Origin: Parcubacteria group bacterium GW2011_GWF2_45_11
GTDB taxonomy: Bacteria > Patescibacteriota > Patescibacteriia > UBA1558 > UBA10009
DNA: 64,000 nucleotides
Direction of reading: 5' to 3'
NCBI GenBank assembly: GCA_001001205.1
Contig: LCKE01000001.1
Span: 8,208-72,207 of the forward strand
A program made the position numbers and the translations under genes. Positions 1 to 42,207 of this stretch are shown here, one piece after another; position 1 is the stretch's first letter; every line of letters begins with the position of its first letter. The notes beneath the pieces are model-generated. The model did no database searches. It was not told the DNA's origin and worked only from the letters and a program-made list of their open reading frames with translations.

Positions 1-120
1 TCACATTATTCCCCGGTTAGATAACGATAATCTGCATCCCTGGCCCGGTAAGCAATACGCCGAGGGCGAAAAAGAAAGCTACGCCCAGAGAATTCTTAAA
101 TCTTTAGAAAGTTAAAACGC

Positions 121-2341
<2,221 letters not shown>

Positions 2342-28550: not shown

Positions 28551-28595
28551 ATAGATTATTTTTTAATGACTTGCCTATACTCTAGCAAAATTTGT

Positions 28596-28662
28596 GAAAA
28601 AATTCAAAGCCAAAAATTCAAAGCAAAAATTCAAAGCCAAAAATTCAAAGCCAATTCAAAGC
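28596..28662. repeat. tandem repeat, about 4.8 copies of AAAAATTCAAAGC(C)
   Basis: Read directly from the sequence between the divergent prs-like and secA genes. It accounts for the spurious MKKFKAKNSK N-terminal extension in the ORF track. Confidence 0.85.
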
Positions 28663-28663
28663 C

Positions 28664-28692
28664 ATTGCCAAACACCGCAAACTCTGGTATTA
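28664..28692 (+). promoter_or_regulatory. putative secA promoter: TTGCCA-17 bp-TGgTATTAT (extended -10)
   Basis: TTGCCA at 28664-28669, TATTAT at 28687-28692, with TG at -15/-14. The tandem A-tract repeats lie immediately upstream, in UP-element position. Confidence 0.45.
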
Positions 28693-28716
28693 TGGACAGG
28701 CAAAAACCGCAAAAAT

Positions 28717-31524
28717 ATGAATCTTTTGAACAAAATTTTCGGCGACGGCAACGAAAAATATTTAAAAAGCCTGCAGCCGCCAATTGAAAAAATTAACACT
28801 CTGGAAAAATCATACGCTGATTTATCTCAGGCGGATTTAAAAGCCAAGGCTAAAGACTTAAAGCGTGTTGTCGCCGGTGGAAAAGCCTTGGACGATATTT
28901 TACCCGAAGCTTTCGCCCTGGTCAGGGAAGCGGCCAAGCGTACCCTTAACCAAAAGCATTACGATGTCCAGCTGATTGGCGGCTTGGTTTTGCATCAGGG
29001 CGGCATTGCGGAGATGAAAACCGGGGAAGGCAAAACGTTGGTGGCCACCCTGCCGGCGTTTCTTAACGCCCTCGCCGGCAAAGGCGTTCATGTTATTACC
29101 GTTAACGATTATCTGTCACGGCGCGACATGGTCTGGATGGGTCAAATTTACAACTATTTAGGCCTGTCCGTCAGCTGTCTGCAACACGACAGCGCTTTTT
29201 TGTATGACGAAACATTCGCCGCCGATCAAAAAAGCGAAGAAGAGCGCGATCGCGGCGTGGTGGTGCCGGAAAAATTTTTAAAGCCGGCTAGCCGTAAGGA
29301 GGCTTATTTGGCCGATATTACTTACGGCACCAACAACGAATTCGGTTTTGATTACTTAAGGGACAATATGGTCCAGCAGGCCTCCGGCATGGTCCAACGC
29401 GGGCTTAATTACGCCATTATTGACGAAGTTGATTCCATTTTAATAGACGAAGCCCGCACCCCTCTGATTATTTCGGCGCCGGCCGAAGAGTCAACGGATA
29501 AGTACTATCAGTTTGCCAAGCTGGTCAGGATTTTAAATGAAACCGCAGATTACAATATTGACGAAAAGTTGCGGGCCTGTAGCTTAACCGAAGAGGGAAT
29601 TACCAAAATAGAAAAATCTTTGGGCGTGGAAAACATTTACGAATCCCACGGCTTAAGCATTGTCCATCATCTGGAAGAAGCCCTGAAAGCGGAAACTATT
29701 TTTAAGCGCGACCGCGATTACGTGGTCAAGGACGGCGAGGTCATTATCGTGGACGAATTCACCGGCCGCTTAATGTTCGGCCGGCGCTATTCCGGCGGCC
29801 TGCATCAGGCAATTGAAGCCAAAGAAGGGGTTAAAATCCAGCGCGAAAGCGTGACCATGGCCACGATTACTTTTCAAAACTATTTTAGAATGTACCCCAA
29901 GCTGGCAGGCATGACCGGCACGGCCGCCACTGAAGCGGAAGAGTTCGCTAAAATTTACAATCTGGACGTCACGGTCATCCCCACCAACAAGCCGATGATC
30001 AGAAAGGATTCAAACGATCGCATTTATAAAAACGAGGCGGGCAAATTTACCGCCGCGGTCAAGGAAATTAAAGAGCGGAACCAAAAAGGCCAGCCGGTTT
30101 TAATCGGCACCATTTCCATAGAAAAAAACGAGCTGCTTTCTCAATTTCTGAGCCGCGAGGGCATCAGGCATGAACTGTTGAACGCCAAAAACCATGCCCG
30201 TGAAGCGGAAATTTTGGCCCAAGCCGGGCGCCCGGGCGCCGTTACTCTGGCCACCAACATGGCCGGGCGCGGCGTGGACATAATTTTAGGCGGCAATCCG
30301 GTTAATCAGGCCGAGCAACAAAAAGTGATCGCGGCCGGAGGTTTGCACGTTATCGGCACCGAACGCCACGAATCCAGAAGAATAGATAACCAGTTAAGGG
30401 GGCGTTCCGGCCGGCAGGGGGATCCCGGCTCCAGCCAATTTTTTGTCTGCTTAGACGATGATCTCATGAGAATTTTTGGCTCCGACCGAATGAAAAGCCT
30501 GATGAACACCCTCAAAGTTCCGGAAGACCTGCCCATTGAAAACCGGCTGATTTCCAAATCCATTGAGTCAGCGCAAAAGCGAGTGGAAGGCAACAACTTT
30601 GACATCAGAAAACACCTGGTGGAATATGATGACGTTTTAAACAAGCAAAGAACCGCCATTTACAGGAAACGGCGACTGATTCTTGATCTGGCGGAGGGTC
30701 AACATAAACTAAACGCCAACCAGCAACCAGCTGTGCCAAAAAATGTTCTGGAGGCAGACGCTAAAACAGAACAGAACGAGCCGGCCAAATACCGCGACAC
30801 CCGCGAAATTGTCTTAGATTATGTCAACCGCGAAATTGAACAGATTGTTGACGTTCACTTAGCCGAAAACAGCGAAAGTCCTGAAAAAATTTTTGAAAGC
30901 CTGGAGACGATTTGCCCATTCAATCAGCCGGAAAAAGATTTAATCGGCAAAAGCCTGGCTAAAAATCCGGCGGCGGTTGTCAATCAAATACAGGATTTAG
31001 CCAAAGAAAAATATGTACAAATGGAAGAGTCCATTAGCCATCTGCCCCAGCTGGTGAAGCAAAAAGAACCATTAAGGCAACTGGAAAAATATCTTTTACT
31101 CAGAACAATAGATTCCTTATGGATTGAGCATCTGGAAGCGATTGAGCATTTAAGAACTGGCATCGGCTTAAGGGGCTATGGCCAGCGCGAGCCTTTGATT
31201 GAATATAAAAAAGAATCGTTTCTTTTGTTTCAGCAGCTCTTAAGCCTGATTCAGGAACAGGTGGCACGCTCCATTTTTAAGATGGGTTTGGCGGCCACCG
31301 TGCCGCTGGCTAACCAGCCGCGGGGAATTCAACAGATAAAATCCAGCCTCAGCCAATTTAACCGTCCGGCCGAAAAAAATCAGGCAGACAACTCGGCTCA
31401 AGGGGTCAGCGGCAAAATTAAAGATGTCAGCGGCCATAAAATCGGGCGCAACGATCCCTGCCCGTGCGGCGCGACCAAGGCGGACGGAAGCCCGGTTAAA
31501 TACAAGCATTGCCACGGCCAGTAA
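28717..31524 (+). CDS. secA: preprotein translocase ATPase SecA
   Basis: Canonical start MNLLNKIFGDGNEKYL. Walker A MKTGEGKT, DEVDSILIDEARTPLIIS, and a C-terminal zinc finger CPCGA...KHCHG. Confidence 0.95.
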   Translation: MNLLNKIFGDGNEKYLKSLQPPIEKINTLEKSYADLSQADLKAKAKDLKRVVAGGKALDDILPEAFALVREAAKRTLNQKHYDVQLIGGLVLHQGGIAEMKTGEGKTLVATLPAFLNALAGKGVHVITVNDYLSRRDMVWMGQIYNYLGLSVSCLQHDSAFLYDETFAADQKSEEERDRGVVVPEKFLKPASRKEAYLADITYGTNNEFGFDYLRDNMVQQASGMVQRGLNYAIIDEVDSILIDEARTPLIISAPAEESTDKYYQFAKLVRILNETADYNIDEKLRACSLTEEGITKIEKSLGVENIYESHGLSIVHHLEEALKAETIFKRDRDYVVKDGEVIIVDEFTGRLMFGRRYSGGLHQAIEAKEGVKIQRESVTMATITFQNYFRMYPKLAGMTGTAATEAEEFAKIYNLDVTVIPTNKPMIRKDSNDRIYKNEAGKFTAAVKEIKERNQKGQPVLIGTISIEKNELLSQFLSREGIRHELLNAKNHAREAEILAQAGRPGAVTLATNMAGRGVDIILGGNPVNQAEQQKVIAAGGLHVIGTERHESRRIDNQLRGRSGRQGDPGSSQFFVCLDDDLMRIFGSDRMKSLMNTLKVPEDLPIENRLISKSIESAQKRVEGNNFDIRKHLVEYDDVLNKQRTAIYRKRRLILDLAEGQHKLNANQQPAVPKNVLEADAKTEQNEPAKYRDTREIVLDYVNREIEQIVDVHLAENSESPEKIFESLETICPFNQPEKDLIGKSLAKNPAAVVNQIQDLAKEKYVQMEESISHLPQLVKQKEPLRQLEKYLLLRTIDSLWIEHLEAIEHLRTGIGLRGYGQREPLIEYKKESFLLFQQLLSLIQEQVARSIFKMGLAATVPLANQPRGIQQIKSSLSQFNRPAEKNQADNSAQGVSGKIKDVSGHKIGRNDPCPCGATKADGSPVKYKHCHGQ

Positions 31525-33348: not shown

Positions 33349-34674
33349 ATGAAGCTAAAATTGCTTTTAACCCTGCTTACTTTTTTAATCCCGCTACAAC
33401 TGCTGGCCCGGACGGAAAATCCGGAAATCAGGGTTTTTGATTTTGAGGGCACCCTTTTAAAAACGATCAGCCTTAAAAATTACGGCTGGACCCAAACCGG
33501 AGACATTAAAGTAGCTGACCTTGGAACAGACGGCGTGCCGGAAATAATTTTGAGCGCTCCGGCCGGCGCCAAACCCTATATAAAAATTTACCGCTTGGAC
33601 GGTAGCCCGATTAATGAATTGCTGATTTATCCCGAGGCTTACTTGGGCGGGATCAACTTGGAAATCGCCGATCTTGACCAGGACGGCTATAAAGAAATCA
33701 TTACCGGCGCCACTTTTGGCGGCGGGCCGCATGTCATAATCCTTGACAGTCAGGGGCAAGTTATTAAGTCTTTTTTTGCTTTTGACCTGCTGGATAAGGG
33801 GGGAGTTAATGTCAGCGCCGGCAATCTTTACGGCGATGACAATCTGGAAATCGTAGTCAGCTCCAACGCCCATAACTACGTTAGGGTTTTTGATTCCGGC
33901 GGTAAAATCCTAAACGGCTTTGAGCTTAAAAACAGTTTTACCAATGGGCAAAAAATTGCGACTTTTGACCTGGGCTTAGACGGCCTGGCCGAAATCATCA
34001 CATACTCTAACGCCAGCGACCGGCCATACCTTAATCTTTACAACAACTACGGCGAGAGGCTTAACTCATTTTTGGTCTTTAACGAAAATTTTAGCGGCGG
34101 TTTTAACTTTGACTATCAGGGCTACCAGCTGTTTTTAGGCGCCGGCTTTGGCGGCGGGCCCCATCTTAAAATCGTTGACGGCTACACCAACACCATCAGC
34201 CAGTTTTTTACCGCCGAGCAAAACTTTTTAGGCGGCGTAATGTTCGCGGTTTATAATGATAAAATTTATACCCTGGCTGAACGTTTTGCCACGGCCGTTA
34301 TGCCGGAGAGCCAATATATTTTAATTGATCTTTCCGAACAAAAATTAAAATACTTCCGCGACGGATTTGCCATTTTTGACGAATCAATTTCTTCCGGCAC
34401 GGATTTTTACCCCACACCCGTTGGCCAATATCAAATTCTCAGCAAATCGCCCCTGGCCTATTCTTACACCTACGGCCTGTACATGCCCTTTTGGATGAAC
34501 TTTTATGCCAATTACGGAATTCATGAACTGCCTTACTGGCCTTCCGGCTACCGCGAGGGCGAAAGCCATTTAGGCACTAAAGTCTCTCATGGCTGCGTCC
34601 GCTTGGGCCTTGGCGCCGCGGAAAAATTATATAACCTGGCGACCATCGGCACTAAAGTTTATATTGAGGAATAG
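33349..34674 (+). CDS. secreted FG-GAP/VCBS-repeat protein with C-terminal L,D-transpeptidase (YkuD) domain
   Basis: Signal peptide. Repeats of the DLDQDGYKEIITGATFGGGPHV type. C-terminal L,D-transpeptidase signature SHGCVRL. Confidence 0.7.
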   Translation: MKLKLLLTLLTFLIPLQLLARTENPEIRVFDFEGTLLKTISLKNYGWTQTGDIKVADLGTDGVPEIILSAPAGAKPYIKIYRLDGSPINELLIYPEAYLGGINLEIADLDQDGYKEIITGATFGGGPHVIILDSQGQVIKSFFAFDLLDKGGVNVSAGNLYGDDNLEIVVSSNAHNYVRVFDSGGKILNGFELKNSFTNGQKIATFDLGLDGLAEIITYSNASDRPYLNLYNNYGERLNSFLVFNENFSGGFNFDYQGYQLFLGAGFGGGPHLKIVDGYTNTISQFFTAEQNFLGGVMFAVYNDKIYTLAERFATAVMPESQYILIDLSEQKLKYFRDGFAIFDESISSGTDFYPTPVGQYQILSKSPLAYSYTYGLYMPFWMNFYANYGIHELPYWPSGYREGESHLGTKVSHGCVRLGLGAAEKLYNLATIGTKVYIEE

Positions 34675-34748: not shown

Positions 34749-36446
34749 ATGCCCAGAAAAACCAAAATTGTCACCAGATCCAGGGTTTGGCTCACTTTTG
34801 TGGGCATTTTAGTTTTGGCGATTTTTGCCGGCCTGATTGATTATCCCAAACTGCCGGCGGATTTTCCCGGGCAGTCCTGGTTCAGTAAATTCACTCCCAA
34901 ACTGGGCTTGGATTTGCAGGGCGGTGCCCATTTGGTTTATCAAGCTGATGTTTCGGACATTCCTTCCGCTGACGCCGCTTCAGCCTTGGAAGGCGTCAGA
35001 GACGTTATTGAACAGCGGGTAAATGCTTTTGGGGTTTCCGAGCCGCTGGTGCAAACCGGCAGTAATAACCGCCTCATCATTGAACTGGCCGGCGTGACCG
35101 ACGTTAATCAGGCCATCCAGCAAATCGGCGAAACGCCGCTCCTGGAATTCAAAGAAATGTCAGAACCGCCGGCGCCAACGCCCTTAACGGCCGCAGAAAA
35201 AGAAGCCGCGGTTAAACACAACGAGGAAACCTTAAACACGGCCGACTCCATCATTCAGCAGCTAAACCAGGGAAGTGATTTTGGCGAACTGGCCCGCCAG
35301 TATTCCGAAGATCCCGGGTCAAAAGACAACGGCGGCGATTTAGACTTTGCCAAACGCAATACTTTTGTGCCGGAATTTGAAGAAGTTTTGTTTGATCAGC
35401 TTAAAATAAGCGAGATCACCCAGGCGCCTTTAAAAACTGAATTCGGTTACCATATTATCAAAAAACTGGACGAGCGCGGACAAGGAGAGGATTACGAAGT
35501 CAAAGGAGCGCATATTCTTTTAACCATTACTAACGAAGTCTATCAGTCGCAGGACAATCTAACCCTGGATTGGAATAATACCCAGCTATCCGGAAAAAAT
35601 TTAAAACGGTCCGCGGTGGAGTTTGATCCCAATTCCGGCCAGCCGGTTATTTCCCTGCAATTTGACGATCAAGGCCGGGAGCTTTTCGCGGCCATCACCA
35701 AGCGCAATTTGCAAAAGCCGGTCGCCATATTTTTAGACGGCCAGCCGATCAGTATACCCACCGTGCAGGAAGAAATCACCCAGGGTAGCGCCGTGATTTC
35801 CGGCAACTTTAATCTGGTAGAGGCCAAACTTCTGGCCCAGCGTTTGAACGCCGGCGCCCTGCCCGTGCCAATTGAGCTTATTAGCCAGCAGACAGTCGGT
35901 CCGGCTCTGGGCAAAATTTCTCTGCAAAAAAGTCTGATTGCCGGCTTTTTAGGCTTAATCATCGTCTCTTTATTCATGATTATCTTTTACCGCCTGCCCG
36001 GTCTGATGGCGGTCGTAGCCCTGTTTATTTACGGCTTGGTCGCTTTGGCGATTTTTGAACTGTGGCCGGTCACCCTGACTTTGGCTGGCATTGCCGGCTT
36101 TATCCTGTCTGTTGGCATGGCGGTTGACGCCAACGTTTTAATTTTTGAAAGAACCAAAGAGGAACTCCGAAACGGCAAGCCGATCGGCACAAGCGTTGAA
36201 GAAGGCTTTAACCGCGCCTGGTTTTCTATCAGAGACTCCAATTTTTCCAGCATCATCACCTGCGTTATCCTAGCCTGGTTCGGTTCCAGTCTAATCAAAG
36301 GCTTTGCCGTAACTTTGGCCATCGGTATTTTAATTTCCATGTTCAGCGCCATTACTGTCACCAGAACATTTTTGCGTTTAATGGCCGCAAAATACTTTGA
36401 GGATCACCCGTTCTTATTCGGGGTAAGTAAGAAAAAAGATGTTTAA
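34749..36446 (+). CDS. secD: protein translocase subunit SecD with inserted PpiC-type (parvulin) PPIase domain
   Basis: N-terminal TM, a periplasmic head domain, and five C-terminal TM helices (SecD/SecF/RND fold). A parvulin signature SDFGELARQYSEDPGSKDNGGDLDFAKRNTFVPEFEEVLF...FGYHIIKK lies within the periplasmic region. Confidence 0.85.
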   Translation: MPRKTKIVTRSRVWLTFVGILVLAIFAGLIDYPKLPADFPGQSWFSKFTPKLGLDLQGGAHLVYQADVSDIPSADAASALEGVRDVIEQRVNAFGVSEPLVQTGSNNRLIIELAGVTDVNQAIQQIGETPLLEFKEMSEPPAPTPLTAAEKEAAVKHNEETLNTADSIIQQLNQGSDFGELARQYSEDPGSKDNGGDLDFAKRNTFVPEFEEVLFDQLKISEITQAPLKTEFGYHIIKKLDERGQGEDYEVKGAHILLTITNEVYQSQDNLTLDWNNTQLSGKNLKRSAVEFDPNSGQPVISLQFDDQGRELFAAITKRNLQKPVAIFLDGQPISIPTVQEEITQGSAVISGNFNLVEAKLLAQRLNAGALPVPIELISQQTVGPALGKISLQKSLIAGFLGLIIVSLFMIIFYRLPGLMAVVALFIYGLVALAIFELWPVTLTLAGIAGFILSVGMAVDANVLIFERTKEELRNGKPIGTSVEEGFNRAWFSIRDSNFSSIITCVILAWFGSSLIKGFAVTLAIGILISMFSAITVTRTFLRLMAAKYFEDHPFLFGVSKKKDV

Positions 36447-37515
36447 TATCATTCAGGCCAGAAAAATTTGGCTTTGCCTTTCCGGGCTACTGATTGTAGC
36501 CAGCGTTTTGGCTTTGATTTTTTGGGGCCTGCGTTTGGGCATAGATTTCACCGGTGGCAGCCTGTTGGAAGTGGAATTTTTAGAAAGCCGACCGGCCAGC
36601 GAAACTATCCAAGCTCAGCTTGACGAGCTTAAGCTGAAAACACTCCAGCTCCAGCCTACCGGCGAAAAAGGCCTGTTAATCAGAACTACGGCCTTAAGCG
36701 AAGAGCAACACCAGCTTATTTTGGAAAAAATAGACAGCTTGTTTGGGGAAGAAAATACCGCGACCGTTTCCGAGCCAACGGCCGGGCAAACCGAAAAAAC
36801 AGTCACCGTGCCTGCCTCAGCCATCGGCCTAACAGGCGAGGGGACGGAAAACCTAAGCGTGGATATTTCCGGCACCAATCTGGAACAGCTGGGTCTGGAA
36901 GGCATTGGCGTTAGCTCGGCCAGCGCCAGCCGGAATTTTACCGAGCTGAGGTTTGATTCTATCGGCCCGACCATTGGTAGCGAACTTAAACGCAAATCTT
37001 TTTACGCTATTATTGTGGTTTTACTGGCCATTATTTTATATATCGCTTACGCTTTCCGCAAAGTTTCCAAACCGGTTGAATCCTGGGTCTACGGCCTGTC
37101 CGCCATTATCGCCTTGGCCCACGACATCTTTATTATTACTGGCCTTTACGCTATTTTCGGTCACTTCTTTGATTTTCAGGCGGACGCTTTGTTCGTGACC
37201 GCCCTGCTGACTATTTTGGGCTTTTCCGTCCACGACACCATTGTCACTTTTGACCGCATTAGGGAAAATCTGCACCGCCACCAAGACGAAACTTTCATGG
37301 CCGTGGTCAATCGCAGTGTTAACGAAACTATTGTCCGTTCGCTGAACACTTCGCTGACCACTTTATTTGTTTTACTGTCCGTCTATCTCTTTGGCGGCGA
37401 CAGCATTAAAAATTTTGTCCTGACTCTGATGCTAGGCCTGATTATCGGCACCTATTCTTCTATTTTCATCGCCAGCCCGCTTTTGGTTATTTGGAACAAG
37501 CTTAAAAAAAACTAG
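36439..37515 (+). CDS. secF: protein translocase subunit SecF (extended N-terminal periplasmic region)
   Basis: C-terminal six TM helices with the SecF motif, overlapping the secD stop. Confidence 0.85.
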   Translation: MFNIIQARKIWLCLSGLLIVASVLALIFWGLRLGIDFTGGSLLEVEFLESRPASETIQAQLDELKLKTLQLQPTGEKGLLIRTTALSEEQHQLILEKIDSLFGEENTATVSEPTAGQTEKTVTVPASAIGLTGEGTENLSVDISGTNLEQLGLEGIGVSSASASRNFTELRFDSIGPTIGSELKRKSFYAIIVVLLAIILYIAYAFRKVSKPVESWVYGLSAIIALAHDIFIITGLYAIFGHFFDFQADALFVTALLTILGFSVHDTIVTFDRIRENLHRHQDETFMAVVNRSVNETIVRSLNTSLTTLFVLLSVYLFGGDSIKNFVLTLMLGLIIGTYSSIFIASPLLVIWNKLKKN

Positions 37516-37698: not shown

Positions 37699-38838
37699 TT
37701 GGCCAAAAATATGACATACGAAGAATCAATTCTGGATAAAATAATTTCCACTCAACAGGCGAATATCATTAACGAATTTGACCCCAAAGAAATCGTCATT
37801 TCTTTGATTCAACCTTTATCCAGCAGGGAAATGGAAGTCATTACCCTTAGGCACGGGCTTGATCTTAAAGGCAAAAAAACCCTGGAGAAAATCGGCAACC
37901 AGTTTAATGTCACCCGAGAGAGAATCCGGCAGATAGAAAATTCCGCCATCAAAAAAATCAAGAAAAGCCCGGAATTATCGGAAAAAATTGGCACTGTTAA
38001 AAATGTTTTCCAGCAAACTTTGGAAAAACACGGCGGCATTATGCTGGAAGAATTGCTACTGGAAAAAACCCTGAGCAACGTTGGCGTTAACGAAGAAAAC
38101 AAAATCTATGTCAGCTTTATTCTCTCGCAATTATTGAGCGATCAGCTGAACTATGTTCCGGAATCGGACCAGCTTCACGCCGCCTGGAAACTGCCTTCAG
38201 CTTCGGTGGAGAGCCTGATCAGCCTTTTAGAGCTCACCCTAAAAACCATCAAAGAGATTAACGAGCCCGTGCCCTTGAGTGATATCCATGCCAGACTAGT
38301 CAATAACTACAAACACCAATTGCTGGAGGAATTGACGGAAGACATCCTGCTCTCTTATTTGCACTTAAGCAAGTACACTGAACAAAATCCCTATAAAGAA
38401 TGGGGTATGGCGGACTGGAACACGGTCACCCTCAAAAAAATCAGCGATAAAGTTTATTTGGTCCTTAAAAAGGAAGGCCAGCCTCTTCATTTTACCGCCA
38501 TCGCCGATAAAATTAATGAAACGGGTTTTGATCAAAAAATCGCCAACCCCGCCACGATTCACAACGAACTTATTTTGGATGACAAATACGTTTTAGTCGG
38601 CCGGGGCATGTATGCTTTAAGCGAATGGGGCTATAAACCAGGAACGGTGGCGGAAGTCATAACTGATATTTTAAAAAACAGCGAAAAACCTCTGAGTAAA
38701 AACGAAATCATCGCCAAGGTTCTGGAAAACCGCCTAGTGAAAAAAAGCACCATTATTTTGGCTTTGATGGACAAAAGCCGCTTTACCAAGACCGCTCAGG
38801 GGCACTACGCCCTGGCCGCGAATGCAACAGGGGATTAA
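37699..38838 (+). CDS. sigma-70 region 4 domain protein with C-terminal HARE-HTH-like winged helix (putative transcription factor)
   Basis: Textbook region 4.2: LSSREMEVITLRHGLDLKGKKTLEKIGNQFNVTRERIRQIENSAIKKIKK. No region 2 is present. C-terminus FTAIADKINE...VGRGMYAL resembles HARE-HTH. Confidence 0.5.
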   Translation: MAKNMTYEESILDKIISTQQANIINEFDPKEIVISLIQPLSSREMEVITLRHGLDLKGKKTLEKIGNQFNVTRERIRQIENSAIKKIKKSPELSEKIGTVKNVFQQTLEKHGGIMLEELLLEKTLSNVGVNEENKIYVSFILSQLLSDQLNYVPESDQLHAAWKLPSASVESLISLLELTLKTIKEINEPVPLSDIHARLVNNYKHQLLEELTEDILLSYLHLSKYTEQNPYKEWGMADWNTVTLKKISDKVYLVLKKEGQPLHFTAIADKINETGFDQKIANPATIHNELILDDKYVLVGRGMYALSEWGYKPGTVAEVITDILKNSEKPLSKNEIIAKVLENRLVKKSTIILALMDKSRFTKTAQGHYALAANATGD

Positions 38839-38961: not shown

Positions 38962-40515
38962 ATGGAAATCACTATTGATCTAAGCCGACTCGTTTTTTTA
39001 AGTTCAAACAATCCAGCCCAATTAATCTGGTATATTTTCAGCCACGGCGGGTGGCTTATTTTTGTTATCGGCCTGCTGATCCTTATCTTTTACGTCAGGC
39101 TGATATGGCAAAGAAAAAAGTACGTTAAAAGCGTTGAACAAACCCTGCTGGCCATTGACATTCCCAAGGATAATGAGCAAAGCCTGATCGCGGTTGAACA
39201 AATTTTTGCCAGCCTGGCCGGCATCAAAAGCGGTCCAAATCTCTGGGAAAAATATTGGCTCGGCAAAGTCCAGCTTTGGTTTAGCCTGGAAATAATTTCC
39301 TTGGAGGGCTATATCCAGTTTTTGATCCGCACCCCGGTGATTTACCGCGATTTGGTGGAATCGGCTCTGTACGCCCAGTACCCGGAGGCAGAAATTACCG
39401 AAGTCAACGATTACATCAAACTTATTCCCGACGACGTCCACGAAATCAGCTCTGAACACAACATTTGGGCGACGGAATTCACTTTGGCCAAAAATAGCGC
39501 CTATCCCATTAAAACCTACAAATTTTTTGAACATCAGTTAAGCCAGTTGTTCATTGATCCTATGTCCGCTTTGCTGGAAGTTATGAGCAAGCTGGGCAAG
39601 GGGGAACAGCTGGCCATTCAACTGTTGATTGCGCCGGTCGGCGATCACTGGAAAGATAAAGGCCATGAGATCGTCGCTCATCTGATTGGAGAAAAATCTG
39701 ACGCACCCAAAAATTTAGGGGATAAAATCGTTGACAGTTCGGTTAAGGGACTGGAAAAATTCAGCGAGGCCGTCATTAAACTTTGGGGCGATATCAAGGA
39801 TGAGAGCCAAGAGGACAGCGCTAAAAACTACATTCAATACCTCACGCCCGGAGAAAGATTCGTGGTGGAGCGCATTCAGGCAAAATTGGCGCAAATAACT
39901 TTCGCCAGCAAATTCAGACTTTATTACCTGGCGCACAACGAGGTTTTTTCCAAAGGCAAGGGCGTTAACGCCATTTTAGGCGCAATCAACCAGTTTAACA
40001 CCTCCGATCTCAATGCCTTTAAAAAAAACAAGCGGACCGTAACGGATGTTGATTATTTTTTCGTCAAATCAAGGGTTTCCAAACGCCAGCGGAAATTCGT
40101 TAAATATTTTAAAATGAGATCATTGATGGACGGCGCCACGCCTTTTATGCTCTGTACGGAAGAATTGGCCACGCTTTACCATTTCCCGACGATTACCGTC
40201 AAAGCCCCGCTGATCAAAAAAGCCGAAGCTAAAAGAGCAGAACCGCCGACCGCTTTGCCGGTGGAGTTTATGTCGGGCAAAAATTTCTTTACGCCTAAGG
40301 AGGAAAAATCCGCCGAACAGCCCCAAGAAATTGAAACCGTCGGAACAGAACCGACTTATAAAATCGCGGAGTCGCTTTCCGGTTATGATTTTGACAACAA
40401 CTATTTTGAGGAGGCTTTTGCCAAAGACGAATCTTCAATTAAGCCGAGGCAAGACACGCCCTCAAGCAGTGACTCCGCTCCGGAGCCGCCGGACAATTTG
40501 CCCCTCAGCCGCTAA
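38962..40515 (+). CDS. membrane-anchored hypothetical protein (partner of downstream P-loop ATPase)
   Basis: 517 aa with one N-terminal TM and an acidic, low-complexity C-terminal tail. A 13-bp gap separates it from the next gene. Confidence 0.35.
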   Translation: MEITIDLSRLVFLSSNNPAQLIWYIFSHGGWLIFVIGLLILIFYVRLIWQRKKYVKSVEQTLLAIDIPKDNEQSLIAVEQIFASLAGIKSGPNLWEKYWLGKVQLWFSLEIISLEGYIQFLIRTPVIYRDLVESALYAQYPEAEITEVNDYIKLIPDDVHEISSEHNIWATEFTLAKNSAYPIKTYKFFEHQLSQLFIDPMSALLEVMSKLGKGEQLAIQLLIAPVGDHWKDKGHEIVAHLIGEKSDAPKNLGDKIVDSSVKGLEKFSEAVIKLWGDIKDESQEDSAKNYIQYLTPGERFVVERIQAKLAQITFASKFRLYYLAHNEVFSKGKGVNAILGAINQFNTSDLNAFKKNKRTVTDVDYFFVKSRVSKRQRKFVKYFKMRSLMDGATPFMLCTEELATLYHFPTITVKAPLIKKAEAKRAEPPTALPVEFMSGKNFFTPKEEKSAEQPQEIETVGTEPTYKIAESLSGYDFDNNYFEEAFAKDESSIKPRQDTPSSSDSAPEPPDNLPLSR

Positions 40516-40527
40516 AACGCTTAGTTT

Positions 40528-42207
40528 ATGCCCCAAGAGGAAATAACAATTTTCGCCCAAACTAATTTTAGAAACCAAAAAGCCAAGTTTGGCATAAAAA
40601 CTGACGACCGCCGCCGGCATTTTTACGTTTTGGGCAAAACGGGCATGGGTAAAACCAACCTTTTGGAAACCATGATCATCCAGGATATCCAACGGGGGAA
40701 AGGCGTGGCCGTGGTTGATCCTCACGGCGAATTGGTGGAAAACATCCTCAGGTTCATCCCCAACAGGCGGATTAACGATGTCATTTACTTTAACCCCTCG
40801 GATATCAATTTCCCCATCGCTTTTAACGTGCTTGAGCAGGTCAGTCCGGAACACCGGCATCTGGTCGCCTCCGGTCTGCTCGGCGTCTTTCAAAAAATTT
40901 GGGCCGATTCCTGGGGGCCCCGCCTGGAATATGTTTTAAACAACGCCATTTTGGCCTTGCTGGAATACCCGGGTAGCACTCTCTTAGGCATCATGAAAAT
41001 TCTGGTTGACAAAAATTTCAGGCAAAAGGTGGTCAGGAATCTTTCGGATCCGGTGGTTAAATCATTTTGGGTGGACGAGTATTCCAATTATCCGGACCGC
41101 TTCCAGTCCGAGGCGATCGCGCCGATCCAGAATAAAGTCGGCCGCTTCCTCTCCTCCTCCATGATGCGCAATATCGTCGGCCAGGTTAAATCAACCATTG
41201 ATATGCGCAAAATCATGGATGAAGAAAAAATTCTCCTGCTGAACCTGTCCAAAGGCAGAATCGGGGAAGACAACTCAGCTTTACTAGGCGCCATGATGGT
41301 GACCAAAATGCAGCTTGCCGCCATGAGCCGGGTGGAAATGCCGGAAAGCGAGCGCCGCGACTTTTATTTGTACGTGGATGAGTTTCAAAACTTTGCCACC
41401 GACAGCTTTGCCAACATTTTATCGGAAGCGCGCAAATACCGCTTAAACCTTATTTTGGCCCACCAATACATTGAACAGCTGTCCGACACGGTGCGGGCGG
41501 CGGTTTTTGGCAATGTCGGCACTTTAATCTGCTTTAGGGTAGGCGCCGAAGACGCTGAATTTTTGGTTAAAGAATTCACGCCCCGTTTTGAAGAAACTGA
41601 TCTGGTCAATCTGGGTAAATACAATGTTTATCTTAAACTGATGATTGACGGCTTAGCTTCGGAGCCTTTTTCTGCCACCAGCCTGCCGCCGGAAACGGCG
41701 CCGGAAGATTATGCCGAAGTCGTGGAAAAAGTCATCAAGGTCACTCGGGAACGCTATACCACCAAACGGGAAATCATTGAAGAAAAAATCACCCGCTGGA
41801 GCGGCCTTAATCACGATAAAGAAACTCCGCTCAAAACCGAAAAGCGAATTTTTCCGGAAAAAAAGCCCTGGCCGGCCGCCAAAACCGAAAAACCAAAAGA
41901 GGCAAAAGATAAAAAAACCAGCCTCAGCGTCATCTGCGACTCTTGCAAAAATTCCACCACCATTAATTTTGTTCCCGACCCGACCAAGCCGATTTACTGC
42001 AAGGACTGCCTTAAAAAAATCCGCCAGGCCAAAATCATAGCTGAACCAGCTGGGCCGTCTTTGGCTGAGCGCGTTTTAAGCCAAAACACCATTTCCCTCA
42101 AACAGGCGCTTAATCTGCCGGTTAAAGATTTTAAAAACCACAAAAATAAAAACGAAGCTTACGACTCCGGCCGCAAGATTGAGCCGGGGGAAACGGTTAA
42201 TTTTTAA
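40528..42207 (+). CDS. FtsK/HerA-superfamily P-loop NTPase, TraG/VirD4/AAA_10-like, with C-terminal zinc ribbon
   Basis: Walker A LGKTGMGKTN, Walker B-like LYVDEFQNFAT, NLILAHQYIEQL, and a C-terminal CDSCKNS...CKDCLKK. Confidence 0.55.
   Translation: MPQEEITIFAQTNFRNQKAKFGIKTDDRRRHFYVLGKTGMGKTNLLETMIIQDIQRGKGVAVVDPHGELVENILRFIPNRRINDVIYFNPSDINFPIAFNVLEQVSPEHRHLVASGLLGVFQKIWADSWGPRLEYVLNNAILALLEYPGSTLLGIMKILVDKNFRQKVVRNLSDPVVKSFWVDEYSNYPDRFQSEAIAPIQNKVGRFLSSSMMRNIVGQVKSTIDMRKIMDEEKILLLNLSKGRIGEDNSALLGAMMVTKMQLAAMSRVEMPESERRDFYLYVDEFQNFATDSFANILSEARKYRLNLILAHQYIEQLSDTVRAAVFGNVGTLICFRVGAEDAEFLVKEFTPRFEETDLVNLGKYNVYLKLMIDGLASEPFSATSLPPETAPEDYAEVVEKVIKVTRERYTTKREIIEEKITRWSGLNHDKETPLKTEKRIFPEKKPWPAAKTEKPKEAKDKKTSLSVICDSCKNSTTINFVPDPTKPIYCKDCLKKIRQAKIIAEPAGPSLAERVLSQNTISLKQALNLPVKDFKNHKNKNEAYDSGRKIEPGETVNF

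Follow-up and report, generated by a model that had tools for sequence, protein, structure and literature searches.

The secD gene in the window (here, the whole 64,000-nucleotide stretch of DNA that was analysed) encodes a SecD protein with a parvulin-type domain spliced into its extracytoplasmic P1 region. Taken together, the data make it probable that this is a functional SecD carrying, where the P1 base connects to the head, a complete and probably active parvulin of the PrsA/SurA type, which is apparently circularly permuted.

Domain organisation of SecD and its SecF partner

The features of the locus are listed in Table 1. The whole protein is a member of the SecD family, scoring 396.8 bits against the NCBIfam secD profile TIGR01129 (cutoff 244.4), and a 100% identical protein (P0001) is named 'protein translocase subunit SecD [Candidatus Komeilibacteria bacterium]'. 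The best relatives of the 565-aa SecD in the PDB are the SecDF structures 3aqp, 5xan, and 5yhf. The six-TM topology of SecD was recovered in the AlphaFold model, with a first helix at residues 10-31, P1 at 45-383, and long helices between residues 388 and 545.

Table 1. Sec genes of the window and parts of the SecD and SecF proteins (positions are those of the window; residues are numbered within each protein).
Feature	Position	Strand	Evidence or remarks
secA, 976 aa, 3.2 kb upstream of secD	28594..31524	+	Pfam SecA_DEAD E=1.7e-125, P-loop_SecA, SecA_PP_bind, SecA_SW
secD CDS, 565 aa	34749..36446	+	ORF list; stop codon inside the secF start region
SecD TM1, residues 10-31, RSRVWLTFVGILVLAIFAGLID	34776..34841	+	AlphaFold helix 10-31, pLDDT ~94
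SecD P1 base, N-terminal part, residues 45-138	34881..35162	+	Ends in strand LLEFKE
Pro-rich N-linker EPPAPTPLT, residues 139-147, entering the insert	35163..35189	+	Conservation 0.31; pLDDT 67-83
Parvulin core, alpha1 to beta4, residues 148-243	35190..35477	+	D188 35310-35312; T230 35436-35438; H235 35451-35453
Turn GQGEDY (244-249) and trailing strand beta1' EVKGAHILLT (250-259)	35478..35525	+	H255 35511-35513
C-linker, residues 260-275, back into SecD	35526..35573	+	pLDDT 76-81; conservation 0.33
P1 head, residues 276-373	35574..35867	+	Pfam SecDF_P1_head E=7e-29, 100.4 bits
Return strand and TM2-TM6, residues 375-546, D460 in GMAVDANV	35871..36386	+	Pfam SecD_SecF_C
secF, 358 aa	36439..37515	+	TIGR00966 275.7 bits vs cutoff 160
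Low-complexity loop in the SecF P4 domain, ~residues 104-164	36748..36930	+	Lineage-specific; MAFFT

In the P1 base, Pfam recognised Sec_GG (the GG motif, residues 45-67) and SecD_1st (82-138, 63.5 bits, above the gathering score). This part aligned to residues 33-138 of Thermus thermophilus SecDF, with a mean majority-residue frequency of 0.77, and the P1 head aligned to the same protein from residue 159. The SecD_SecF_C match (375-546) reached 53.3 bits, also above the gathering score. Within it, D460 of the GMAVDANV motif is invariant among 107 homologues and is aligned with Asp340 of T. thermophilus SecDF (numbered by counting residues along the alignment), which we take to be the TM4 aspartate of the SecDF proton pathway.

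An adjacent SecF partner is present: secD and secF overlap by 8 nt (ATGTTTAA), as read from the sequence, and in nearly all related loci, too, SecF has an ORF of its own directly after the fusion-type secD. SecF is about 55-60 aa longer than most of its relatives (median ~301 aa in 41 loci). An unusually long N-terminal periplasmic region had been ascribed to it; the extra length is real, but it forms an internal loop of the P4 domain and is not N-terminal. A MAFFT alignment showed the loop to be absent from most of 14 related SecF ORFs, two loci (L001 and L016) carrying unrelated inserts at the same site.

A parvulin domain within P1

Pfam placed two parvulin families in SecD above their cutoffs, Rotamase_3 (PF13616) at residues 153-242 (E=5.1e-24, 85.5 bits, cutoff 22.5) and Rotamase (PF00639) at residues 150-239 (E=6.5e-20, 72.4 bits, cutoff 21.7), both falling between SecD_1st and SecDF_P1_head. 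The motifs DFGELARQYSEDPGSKDNGGDLDFAKRNTFVPEFEEVLF (residues 177-213) and TEFGYHIIKK (230-239) belong to this region. The preliminary description of this DNA had recognised a PpiC/parvulin signature in SecD and called for a domain assignment; the Rotamase_3 and TIGR01129 scores together put its reading far beyond chance, and Pfam, NCBIfam, AlphaFold, and structure alignments agree with it in placing a foldase domain in P1 of the SecDF motor. The extent of about residues 170-235 given there does lie within the parvulin; the domain is actually larger, covering residues ~148-259 (~112 residues) once the trailing beta strand is included. The part of SecD concerned is the outward-facing P1, as was described, but 'extracytoplasmic' suits it better than 'periplasmic', since Patescibacteria are generally regarded as bacteria without an outer membrane.

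The insert has the parvulin fold, a four-stranded sheet packed by helices. Its core and trailing strand are well conserved (0.61 and 0.67, respectively, vs 0.31-0.33 for the linkers), and homologues share 12% identity with the window protein in the C-linker. In both AlphaFold models, of the full-length protein and of the isolated insert, the two linkers are joined by a one-residue beta bridge. The full-length model has a pTM of only 0.60 and therefore does not fix where the insert lies with respect to the head.

Pfam found only Rotamase and SecD families in SecD, with no SurA_N or trigger-factor family. The NCBIfam models for PrsA, SurA, and PpiC matched the parvulin region only, with scores far below their cutoffs (72.5 vs 361 for PrsA NF002846). 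Enclosed within SecD from residue 138 to residue 276, the domain has no anchor or targeting element of its own in the form of a lipobox, a single TM helix, or a signal peptide.

Apparent circular permutation

Canonical parvulins follow the beta1-first order beta1-alpha1-3-beta2-alpha4-beta3-beta4. In SecD the Pfam matches start only at position 27/28 of 116 (Rotamase_3) and at position 7 of 97 (Rotamase), which indicates that the domain lacks beta1, the strand of the first catalytic His, at its N-terminus; a beta1-like strand stands after beta4 instead. This 'EVxxxHIL' strand (250-259) comes after the C-terminal 'GYHIIKK' strand, and its residues H255, I256, and L257 are invariant or nearly so. 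DSSP assignment of the AlphaFold model gave a strand at 233-243, a six-residue turn, and a strand at 250-259. When the 132-residue insert was modelled alone, without any SecD strands, it folded with a pLDDT of 98, the corresponding strand (110-119) included. In a phmmer comparison, the segment GYHIIKK...EVKGAHILLT was aligned to the end of the first SurA parvulin and beta1 of the second.

When residues 246-262 were moved in silico to the front of the domain, the Rotamase_3 match reached positions 15-115 (95.5 vs 88.9 bits) and the Rotamase match widened to positions 1-95. The gains in score were modest, +6.6 and +2.2 bits, respectively; shuffled and reversed controls produced no widening of the Pfam matches. 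Canonical single-domain parvulins could be superimposed in sequence order over only 79-91 residues. The structure alignments used are order-dependent and cannot reveal a permuted match. The two histidines also behave as a pair: of 175 short-form fusions, 165 have both, 5 have the beta4 His alone, 5 have neither, and none has the trailing His alone (Fisher p=2e-7 for co-loss, phylogeny ignored).

The parvulin thus appears to be circularly permuted, with alpha1 first and the beta1 strand, bearing the first catalytic His, last, in a hairpin after beta4. The pairing of beta4 with beta1' and the proximity of His235 to His255 are inferred from the DSSP order, the spacing, and these statistics. No permuted parvulin was found on record in the literature searched, which mostly did not extend to subscription journals. 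As far as we could find, this may be the first natural circular permutation of a parvulin to be described, located in the moving arm of SecDF across much of Patescibacteria; we put this forward tentatively, its chances being slightly short of even.

Catalytic residues

D188, H235, and H255 are present in all 107 close homologues (55-100% identity), position 230 is Thr or Ser in all of them, and conservation extends to L198, F206, and F210 of the hydrophobic pocket. D188-H255-H235-T230 presumably correspond to the parvulin tetrad, namely D74-H42-H123-T118 of Par14 and C113-H59-H157-T152 of Pin1. At the residue level, the Asp/Cys-His-His-Thr/Ser tetrad is complete, and a matching spatial arrangement is suggested by the model. 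In about 10 of the 175 short-form fusions, one or both His, and often Asp188 too, are gone although the domain is kept, suggesting that a non-catalytic role suffices in some lineages. Conserved catalytic residues do not in themselves prove prolyl isomerase activity.

Distribution and naming

The same architecture was found in 120 of the 120 nearest 90%-identity clusters. Of the 150 nearest representatives of 50%-identity clusters, 64 have the fusion, as do 45 of the best 80 species-genome loci; its carriers among these representatives and loci are all Patescibacteria. Longer variants of SecD contain two parvulin modules (45 long forms); neither these nor the apparent permutation, the most unusual feature of the domain, had been noticed in the preliminary description. 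No second parvulin was encoded within the 64-kb window, a stretch too short to be informative about the genome, and a stand-alone parvulin protein occurs in at least one MAG labelled Saccharibacteria (L062).

Apparent occurrences outside this group were rejected. Junction-spanning matches in Gemmatimonadota, Ignavibacteria, Chloroflexota, Bacillota, and Proteobacteria proved to be stand-alone parvulins without SecD domains. In fusion-bearing MAGs assigned to 'Gammaproteobacteria', 'Bdellovibrionales', and 'Bathyarchaeia', the SecDs are 55-84% identical to named Patescibacteria sequences, so these labels are unreliable.

According to the preliminary description, its reading would be refuted if the fusion turned out to be common and already annotated. 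Half of this applies. The fusion is indeed widespread in Patescibacteria, but it has never been named: the databases call these proteins 'SecD' only, and no paper describing a SecD-parvulin fusion was found in the literature within reach of our search (subscription journals lay mostly beyond it). With this label, an extracytoplasmic foldase is easily overlooked in inventories of the metabolism and envelope of candidate phyla.

Alternative interpretations

Because the source is a metagenome-assembled genome, it was considered whether mis-assembly, a frameshift, or gene calling had fused a separate parvulin gene with secD. Nothing was found in favour of this; the parvulin lies in frame in the middle of SecD, flanked by two SecD subdomains, 7 contigs of several origins carry the identical protein, and the architecture is common to more than 200 independent homologues from different assemblies. 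Since it recurs in so many independent sequences, an artefact is rejected, its probability being negligible. It could also be argued that the parvulin is not permuted but truncated at its N-terminus, and that strand 250-259 is the hinge between the base and the head of SecD, its HIL motif being coincidental or serving SecD. The strand evidence does consist of DSSP strings and not contacts, the structure alignments depend on sequence order, and in T. thermophilus SecDF, too, ~38 residues separate LEFR from LTGADL. Nevertheless, the insert folds confidently on its own, strand included, in the absence of SecD strands; once moved to the front, the strand fits the beta1 region of both Pfam parvulin models, which the controls fail to do; it aligns to a genuine SurA beta1; and H255 co-varies with the beta4 His. 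In addition, insert-free SecDs lack the strand motif, and the 19-residue His-His spacing fits the ~16 residues that we take to result when the C-terminus of E. coli Par10 is linked to its N-terminus, as counted from the known PpiC sequence. We therefore regard a non-permuted, truncated parvulin as very improbable.

The insert might also be a non-catalytic chaperone or substrate-holding module that widens the polypeptide-binding surface of the P1 head, in the manner of the inactive PpiD or SurA P1 parvulins, with the tetrad residues kept for fold stability or peptide binding and not for isomerisation. The parvulin domain of E. coli PpiD is regarded as inactive. Five fusions (P0135, P0141, P0153, P0167, and P0177) keep the domain without His235, His255, and Asp188, the first module of the two-module long forms is retained although it lacks the beta4 His in 45 of 45 cases, and key catalytic residues are described in only one of the three Mycoplasma Mdp proteins. 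On the other hand, the tetrad is preserved in 107 of 107 members of the clade of the window protein, far above the domain average of 0.61; the His residues vanish together and not singly, as expected for a working active site; and 40 of the 45 long forms have one module with both His. A purely non-catalytic role thus seems unlikely to us for the window protein.

Proposed function

With its catalytic residues intact, the insert is most reasonably read as a foldase that the SecDF motor holds in place, and its most likely function is that of a membrane-tethered foldase for chains leaving SecYEG. Asp188, His255, His235, and Thr230 would still meet in a hydrogen-bond network despite the permutation, and the two poorly conserved linkers would exit and rejoin SecD side by side. 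SecDF would stand beside SecYEG and draw emerging chains outward with a P1 head swung by the proton gradient. At the exit, these unfolded chains would also encounter the tethered parvulin, which would bind them and accelerate proline cis/trans isomerisation. Enzymatic activity and a position close to the head and SecYEG are both predicted in this scheme. Without an outer membrane, a soluble foldase would be lost by diffusion, and anchoring would be needed; SecD could provide the anchor in place of the lipid tail of PrsA or the transmembrane helix of PpiD.

The fusion bears on the way in which folding factors receive exported proteins from the Sec channel, a field in which contact between SurA and SecDF has so far been based on low-resolution EM and AlphaFold. 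A fusion of a parvulin with P1, with catalytic residues kept over a long time, represents independent evolutionary evidence of functional contact. If the proposed reading is true, it would constitute covalent 'Rosetta-stone' evidence that parvulin foldases directly contact P1 of SecD, as proposed for SurA in E. coli and the Mdp dome in Mycoplasma. In that case, substrate might be brought to the isomerase site, or cycled past it, by the PMF-driven swing of P1, so that translocation would be mechanically coupled to folding. The long forms with two modules would then combine a degenerate permuted parvulin with a canonical active one, nested in it or lying beside it. The fusion SecD offers a minimal single-chain system for studies of translocation-coupled folding, and a permuted parvulin would be a natural scaffold for work on fold evolution and engineering.

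Comparison with known systems

The SecDF proteins of T. thermophilus and Deinococcus radiodurans (3AQP, 5YHF, 5XAN, 5XAP) share TM1, P1 base, P1 head, TM2-6, and a SecF partner with the window protein (phmmer E=5e-73; Foldseek E ~1e-23). The TM4 aspartate is common to both, D460 corresponding to D340 in T. thermophilus, and presumably the same proton-driven movement of the head takes place. The distance from the base strand LEFR to the head motif LTGADL is ~38 residues in Thermus and ~141 here, most of it parvulin, and SecD and SecF are encoded by separate genes here, whereas they form one chain in Thermus.

The fusion would be a covalent version of arrangements in which parvulins and the translocon are separate proteins. 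Bacillus PrsA (6VJ6, 6XD8, 1ZK6, 4WO7) is a lipid-anchored dimer whose SurA-like chaperone domain harbours a canonical, beta1-first parvulin, while the SecD insert has no chaperone domain according to Pfam, uses SecD as its anchor, and appears to have a permuted strand order. SurA (1M5Y, 9HG5) gave the best PDB sequence match to the insert (E=8e-19). Docking of the SurA parvulins on the P1 head of SecDF has been predicted from AlphaFold and low-resolution EM (PMC9987972), and this docking pair of parvulin and P1 head is the domain pair joined covalently here. Unlike the SecD insert, SurA is a soluble periplasmic protein with two canonical parvulins and a chaperone core, which passes outer-membrane proteins to BAM. 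PpiD-YfgM is located at SecYEG (PMC9643414), at its lateral gate (8ZHT); PpiD is not part of SecD but an independent protein that contacts SecY and has a TM helix of its own.

Recent preprint work describes a 'dome' in Mycoplasma pneumoniae, formed by Mdp444/436/489 on the Sec translocon with SecDF. It differs from the fusion in being a non-covalent assembly of large lipoproteins with chaperone domains, for which neither insertion into SecD nor permutation is reported. The likeness lies in a genome-reduced bacterium without an outer membrane that places PrsA-like parvulins over the Sec exit, where they touch SecDF, and in the dome substrate density is in contact with the active PPIC domain.

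Domain architecture of the window SecD

A parvulin signature inside SecD, pointed out in the preliminary description, was borne out far above chance by matches of one protein to TIGR01129 and to the Pfam models Rotamase_3 and Rotamase. Every SecD feature examined by sequence or structure is present, and a 100% identical protein is recorded as SecD in a MAG of Candidatus Komeilibacteria (Patescibacteria). The insert has the profile, fold and catalytic residues of a parvulin, but not the canonical strand order. The protein is not a chaperone of the PrsA, SurA or PpiD type, since it has neither a chaperone domain nor an anchor of its own.

Positions of secD, neighbouring genes and parts of the SecD protein
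Feature	Position	Strand	Details
secA	28594-31524	+	976 aa; 3.2 kb upstream of secD
L,D-transpeptidase gene	33349-34674	+	441 aa; immediate upstream neighbour of secD
secD	34749-36446	+	565 aa; TIGR01129, 396.8 bits (cut-off 244.4)
secF	36439-37515	+	TIGR00966, 275.7 bits; 8-nt overlap with secD end
SecF low-complexity loop	36748-36930		SecF residues ~104-164
Sigma-70 region 4/HARE-HTH gene	37699-38838	+	379 aa; domains at residues 37-89 and 253-310
Membrane protein and coupling ATPase genes	38962-42207	+	membrane protein of 517 aa
Sec_GG	SecD 45-67		Pfam
SecD_1st (P1 N-terminal part)	SecD 82-138		Pfam
Last base strand	SecD 132-137		AlphaFold model
Pro-rich linker	SecD, between 132-137 and 148-259		AlphaFold model
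Compact domain	SecD 148-259		AlphaFold, pLDDT 94-97
Rotamase	SecD 150-239		Pfam, E=6.5e-20
Rotamase_3	SecD 153-242		Pfam, E=5.1e-24
Second linker	SecD, between 148-259 and 275-281		AlphaFold model
First head strand	SecD 275-281		AlphaFold model
SecDF_P1_head	SecD 276-373		Pfam
SecD_SecF_C	SecD 375-546		Pfam

SecDF structures 3AQP and 5XAN are reportedly those of Tsukazaki (2011) and Furukawa (2017). In an alignment with Thermus thermophilus SecDF (3AQP), residues 50-159 and 279-547 of the window SecD correspond to Thermus residues 33-138 and 159-427. From LEFR in the base strand to the head motif LTGADL, the Thermus protein has about 38 residues, whereas the window SecD has about 141. The full-length protein was modelled by AlphaFold with a mean pLDDT of 86.6 and a pTM of 0.60. 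The linkers flanking the insert are the least conserved parts of SecD (0.31-0.33; SecD domains 0.75-0.77, insert 0.61-0.67), and a one-residue beta bridge joins them in both AlphaFold models; the parvulin thus has the look of a lobe of its own, carried on a stalk of two strands. Modelling, proposed earlier as a way of locating the domain relative to the P1 head, supported a lobe between base and head; at this pTM, the model does not define how the lobe is oriented to the head.

Probable circular permutation of the parvulin domain

The Pfam matches to the insert start at model position 27/28 of 116 for Rotamase_3 and 7 of 97 for Rotamase. The N-terminus of the insert carries no beta1 strand, helix alpha1 being preceded by the linker EPPAPTPLT alone; in every known canonical parvulin, the first catalytic histidine sits on beta1. 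At the C-terminus, the strand GYH235IIKK leads through a short turn into EVKGAH255ILLT, in which H255, I256 and L257 are invariant or near-invariant among 107 aligned homologues, and phmmer aligned this segment to the end of SurA parvulin 1 plus the beta1 strand of parvulin 2. Strand 250-259 comes six residues after strand 233-243 in both AlphaFold models (pLDDT ~98), and the insert still folds when modelled on its own, with no strand of SecD present (pLDDT 95.5, pTM 0.87). When residues 246-262 were placed ahead of 146-245, the Rotamase_3 match extended to positions 15-115, scoring 95.5 bits versus 88.9 for shuffled or reversed controls, and the Rotamase match to positions 1-95. The H235-H255 spacing is 19 residues; if the two termini of E. 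coli Par10 were linked, a similar value would presumably result, roughly 8+8 residues and a short turn, as counted on the known PpiC sequence.

Among 175 short-form fusions, with one parvulin module in SecD, both histidines are present in 165, the beta4 histidine alone in five, neither in five, and the trailing histidine alone in none (Fisher p=2e-7 for co-loss, uncorrected for phylogeny); where the histidines are lost, Asp188 is usually gone as well. It is thus quite likely that the insert is circularly permuted, a feature absent from the preliminary description; its strand pairing and His-His geometry we infer from the sequences and models.

The active site of parvulins is an extended hydrogen-bond network, Asp/Cys-His-His-Thr/Ser (D74-H42-H123-T118 in Par14, C113-H59-H157-T152 in Pin1). 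In the insert this tetrad is complete: D188, H255 and H235 are each found in 107 of 107 homologues, as is T or S at position 230, and L198, F206 and F210 of the hydrophobic proline pocket are conserved. Since position 188 is Asp rather than Cys and the closest relatives are PrsA (45-49% identity) and SurA, the predicted isomerase is assigned by sequence to the non-phospho-specific PrsA/SurA-type parvulins. The main rival explanation, a non-catalytic holdase, draws on the retention of the domain in some lineages after loss of the tetrad, but within the clade of the window protein strict tetrad conservation disfavours it.

Long-form SecD proteins with two modules

Two-module proteins (P0122-P0221; loci L042, L050, L074 and L080), all outside the window, combine a degenerate His-less core, a canonical beta1-core unit and a beta1-like tail strand. 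They have 650-1100 aa, and some are fused to SecF (chains of 1000-1100 aa); their order is base, core1, EVKASHIL, core2 (ending in FGYHII), tail strand and head. The core1 histidine is gone in 45 of 45; beta1 and core2 beta4 alone keep theirs in 36/45, joined by the tail in 4/45, and such tails resemble a normal beta1 (KVSHILIKT). The long forms fit a canonical, apparently active parvulin nested in or beside a degenerate permuted one, and from their make-up the permutation could plausibly have arisen by duplication plus truncation.

Three short forms (P0139, P0144 and P0146) carry low-complexity loops of 50-60 aa that separate beta4 (GWHII) from the trailing strand EVRASHIL. Large insertions are therefore tolerated in the hairpin of the permuted domain, at the point where a nested second parvulin would sit.

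Distribution of the fusion

The phylogenetic survey called for in the preliminary description found the fusion recurring across Patescibacteria. Rotamase and the SecD domain set occur together in all of the 120 closest clusters at 90% identity (55-100% identity); where a source is named, the entry bears no more than the title 'protein translocase subunit SecD' or 'protein-export membrane protein SecD', and the organism is Komeilibacteria or 'Patescibacteria group'. A search against 1.84 billion representatives of 50%-identity clusters placed a parvulin between base and head in 64 of its top 150 matches. When GTDB species-representative genomes were scanned with an alignment specific to the junction, at least 551 stretches were confirmed; fusion-type SecD is encoded at 45 of the best 80 loci, all in Patescibacteria lineages (Komeili-, Buchanan-, Moran-, Kerfeld- and Parcubacteria, Elulimicrobium and one labelled Saccharibacteria). 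The other 35, from many other phyla, were rejected as stand-alone parvulin proteins.

Fusions placed outside CPR by label were likewise rejected as such: these SecDs are 55-84% identical to named Patescibacteria sequences, and the labels are probably wrong. The MAGs of loci L005, L006, L009, L012, L014-L017, L024, L025 and L027, titled 'uncultured Gammaproteobacteria', 'Bdellovibrionales' or 'Candidatus Bathyarchaeia', are SRP/binchicken-series assemblies whose NCBI organism labels look wrong.

The Rotamase and SecD domain matches are precomputed in public tables, and the full-text literature, whose coverage was incomplete, yielded no paper on SecD fused to a parvulin or on parvulin permutation. 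The fusion is present in databases and, as far as this literature reaches, undescribed rather than hidden; it does not amount to a new type of system.

Neighbouring genes

The SecA DEAD-motor match spans 406 residues where the model has 290 positions, implying that ~115 aa are inserted in the first nucleotide-binding domain. The L,D-transpeptidase is secreted, with FG-GAP-like repeats and a C-terminal YkuD domain, an exported cell-wall enzyme adjoining the export and folding machinery. SecF has a ~60-aa loop rich in Ser, Thr, Gly and Glu in the P4 domain, just ahead of the strand to TM2; it is absent from most relatives, and two related loci (L001, L016) carry inserts of unrelated sequence there, so that the site tolerates insertions. 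Directly downstream of secF, one gene unusually pairs Sigma-70 region 4 with HARE-HTH, a fold also known from the delta subunit of RNA polymerase. It is followed by a membrane protein without a Pfam match and then a TrwB/TraG-like coupling ATPase (HerA/DUF87, TraG-D_C and a treble-clef zinc finger); the two may form a module for type IV secretion or DNA uptake.

Possible role in translocation-coupled folding

Foldases need anchoring in cells without an outer membrane. PrsA is anchored by a lipid and PpiD by a TM helix. In Mycoplasma, the Mdp proteins combine lipid anchors with SecDF contacts; for the window parvulin, the anchor would be SecD itself, which might also be a compact solution for a reduced genome, as the preliminary description suggested. 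SecDF is thought to swing its P1 head by the proton gradient, drawing emerging chains from SecYEG (PMC9987972). These unfolded substrates would also come within reach of a parvulin carried on a flexible stalk where base and head join. Troman et al. inferred a contact between a SurA parvulin and SecDF P1 (PMC9987972), for which the fusion offers covalent evidence. With its unusual domain topology, it provides testable evidence for translocation-coupled folding and has a parallel in M. pneumoniae, in the translocation-folding dome.
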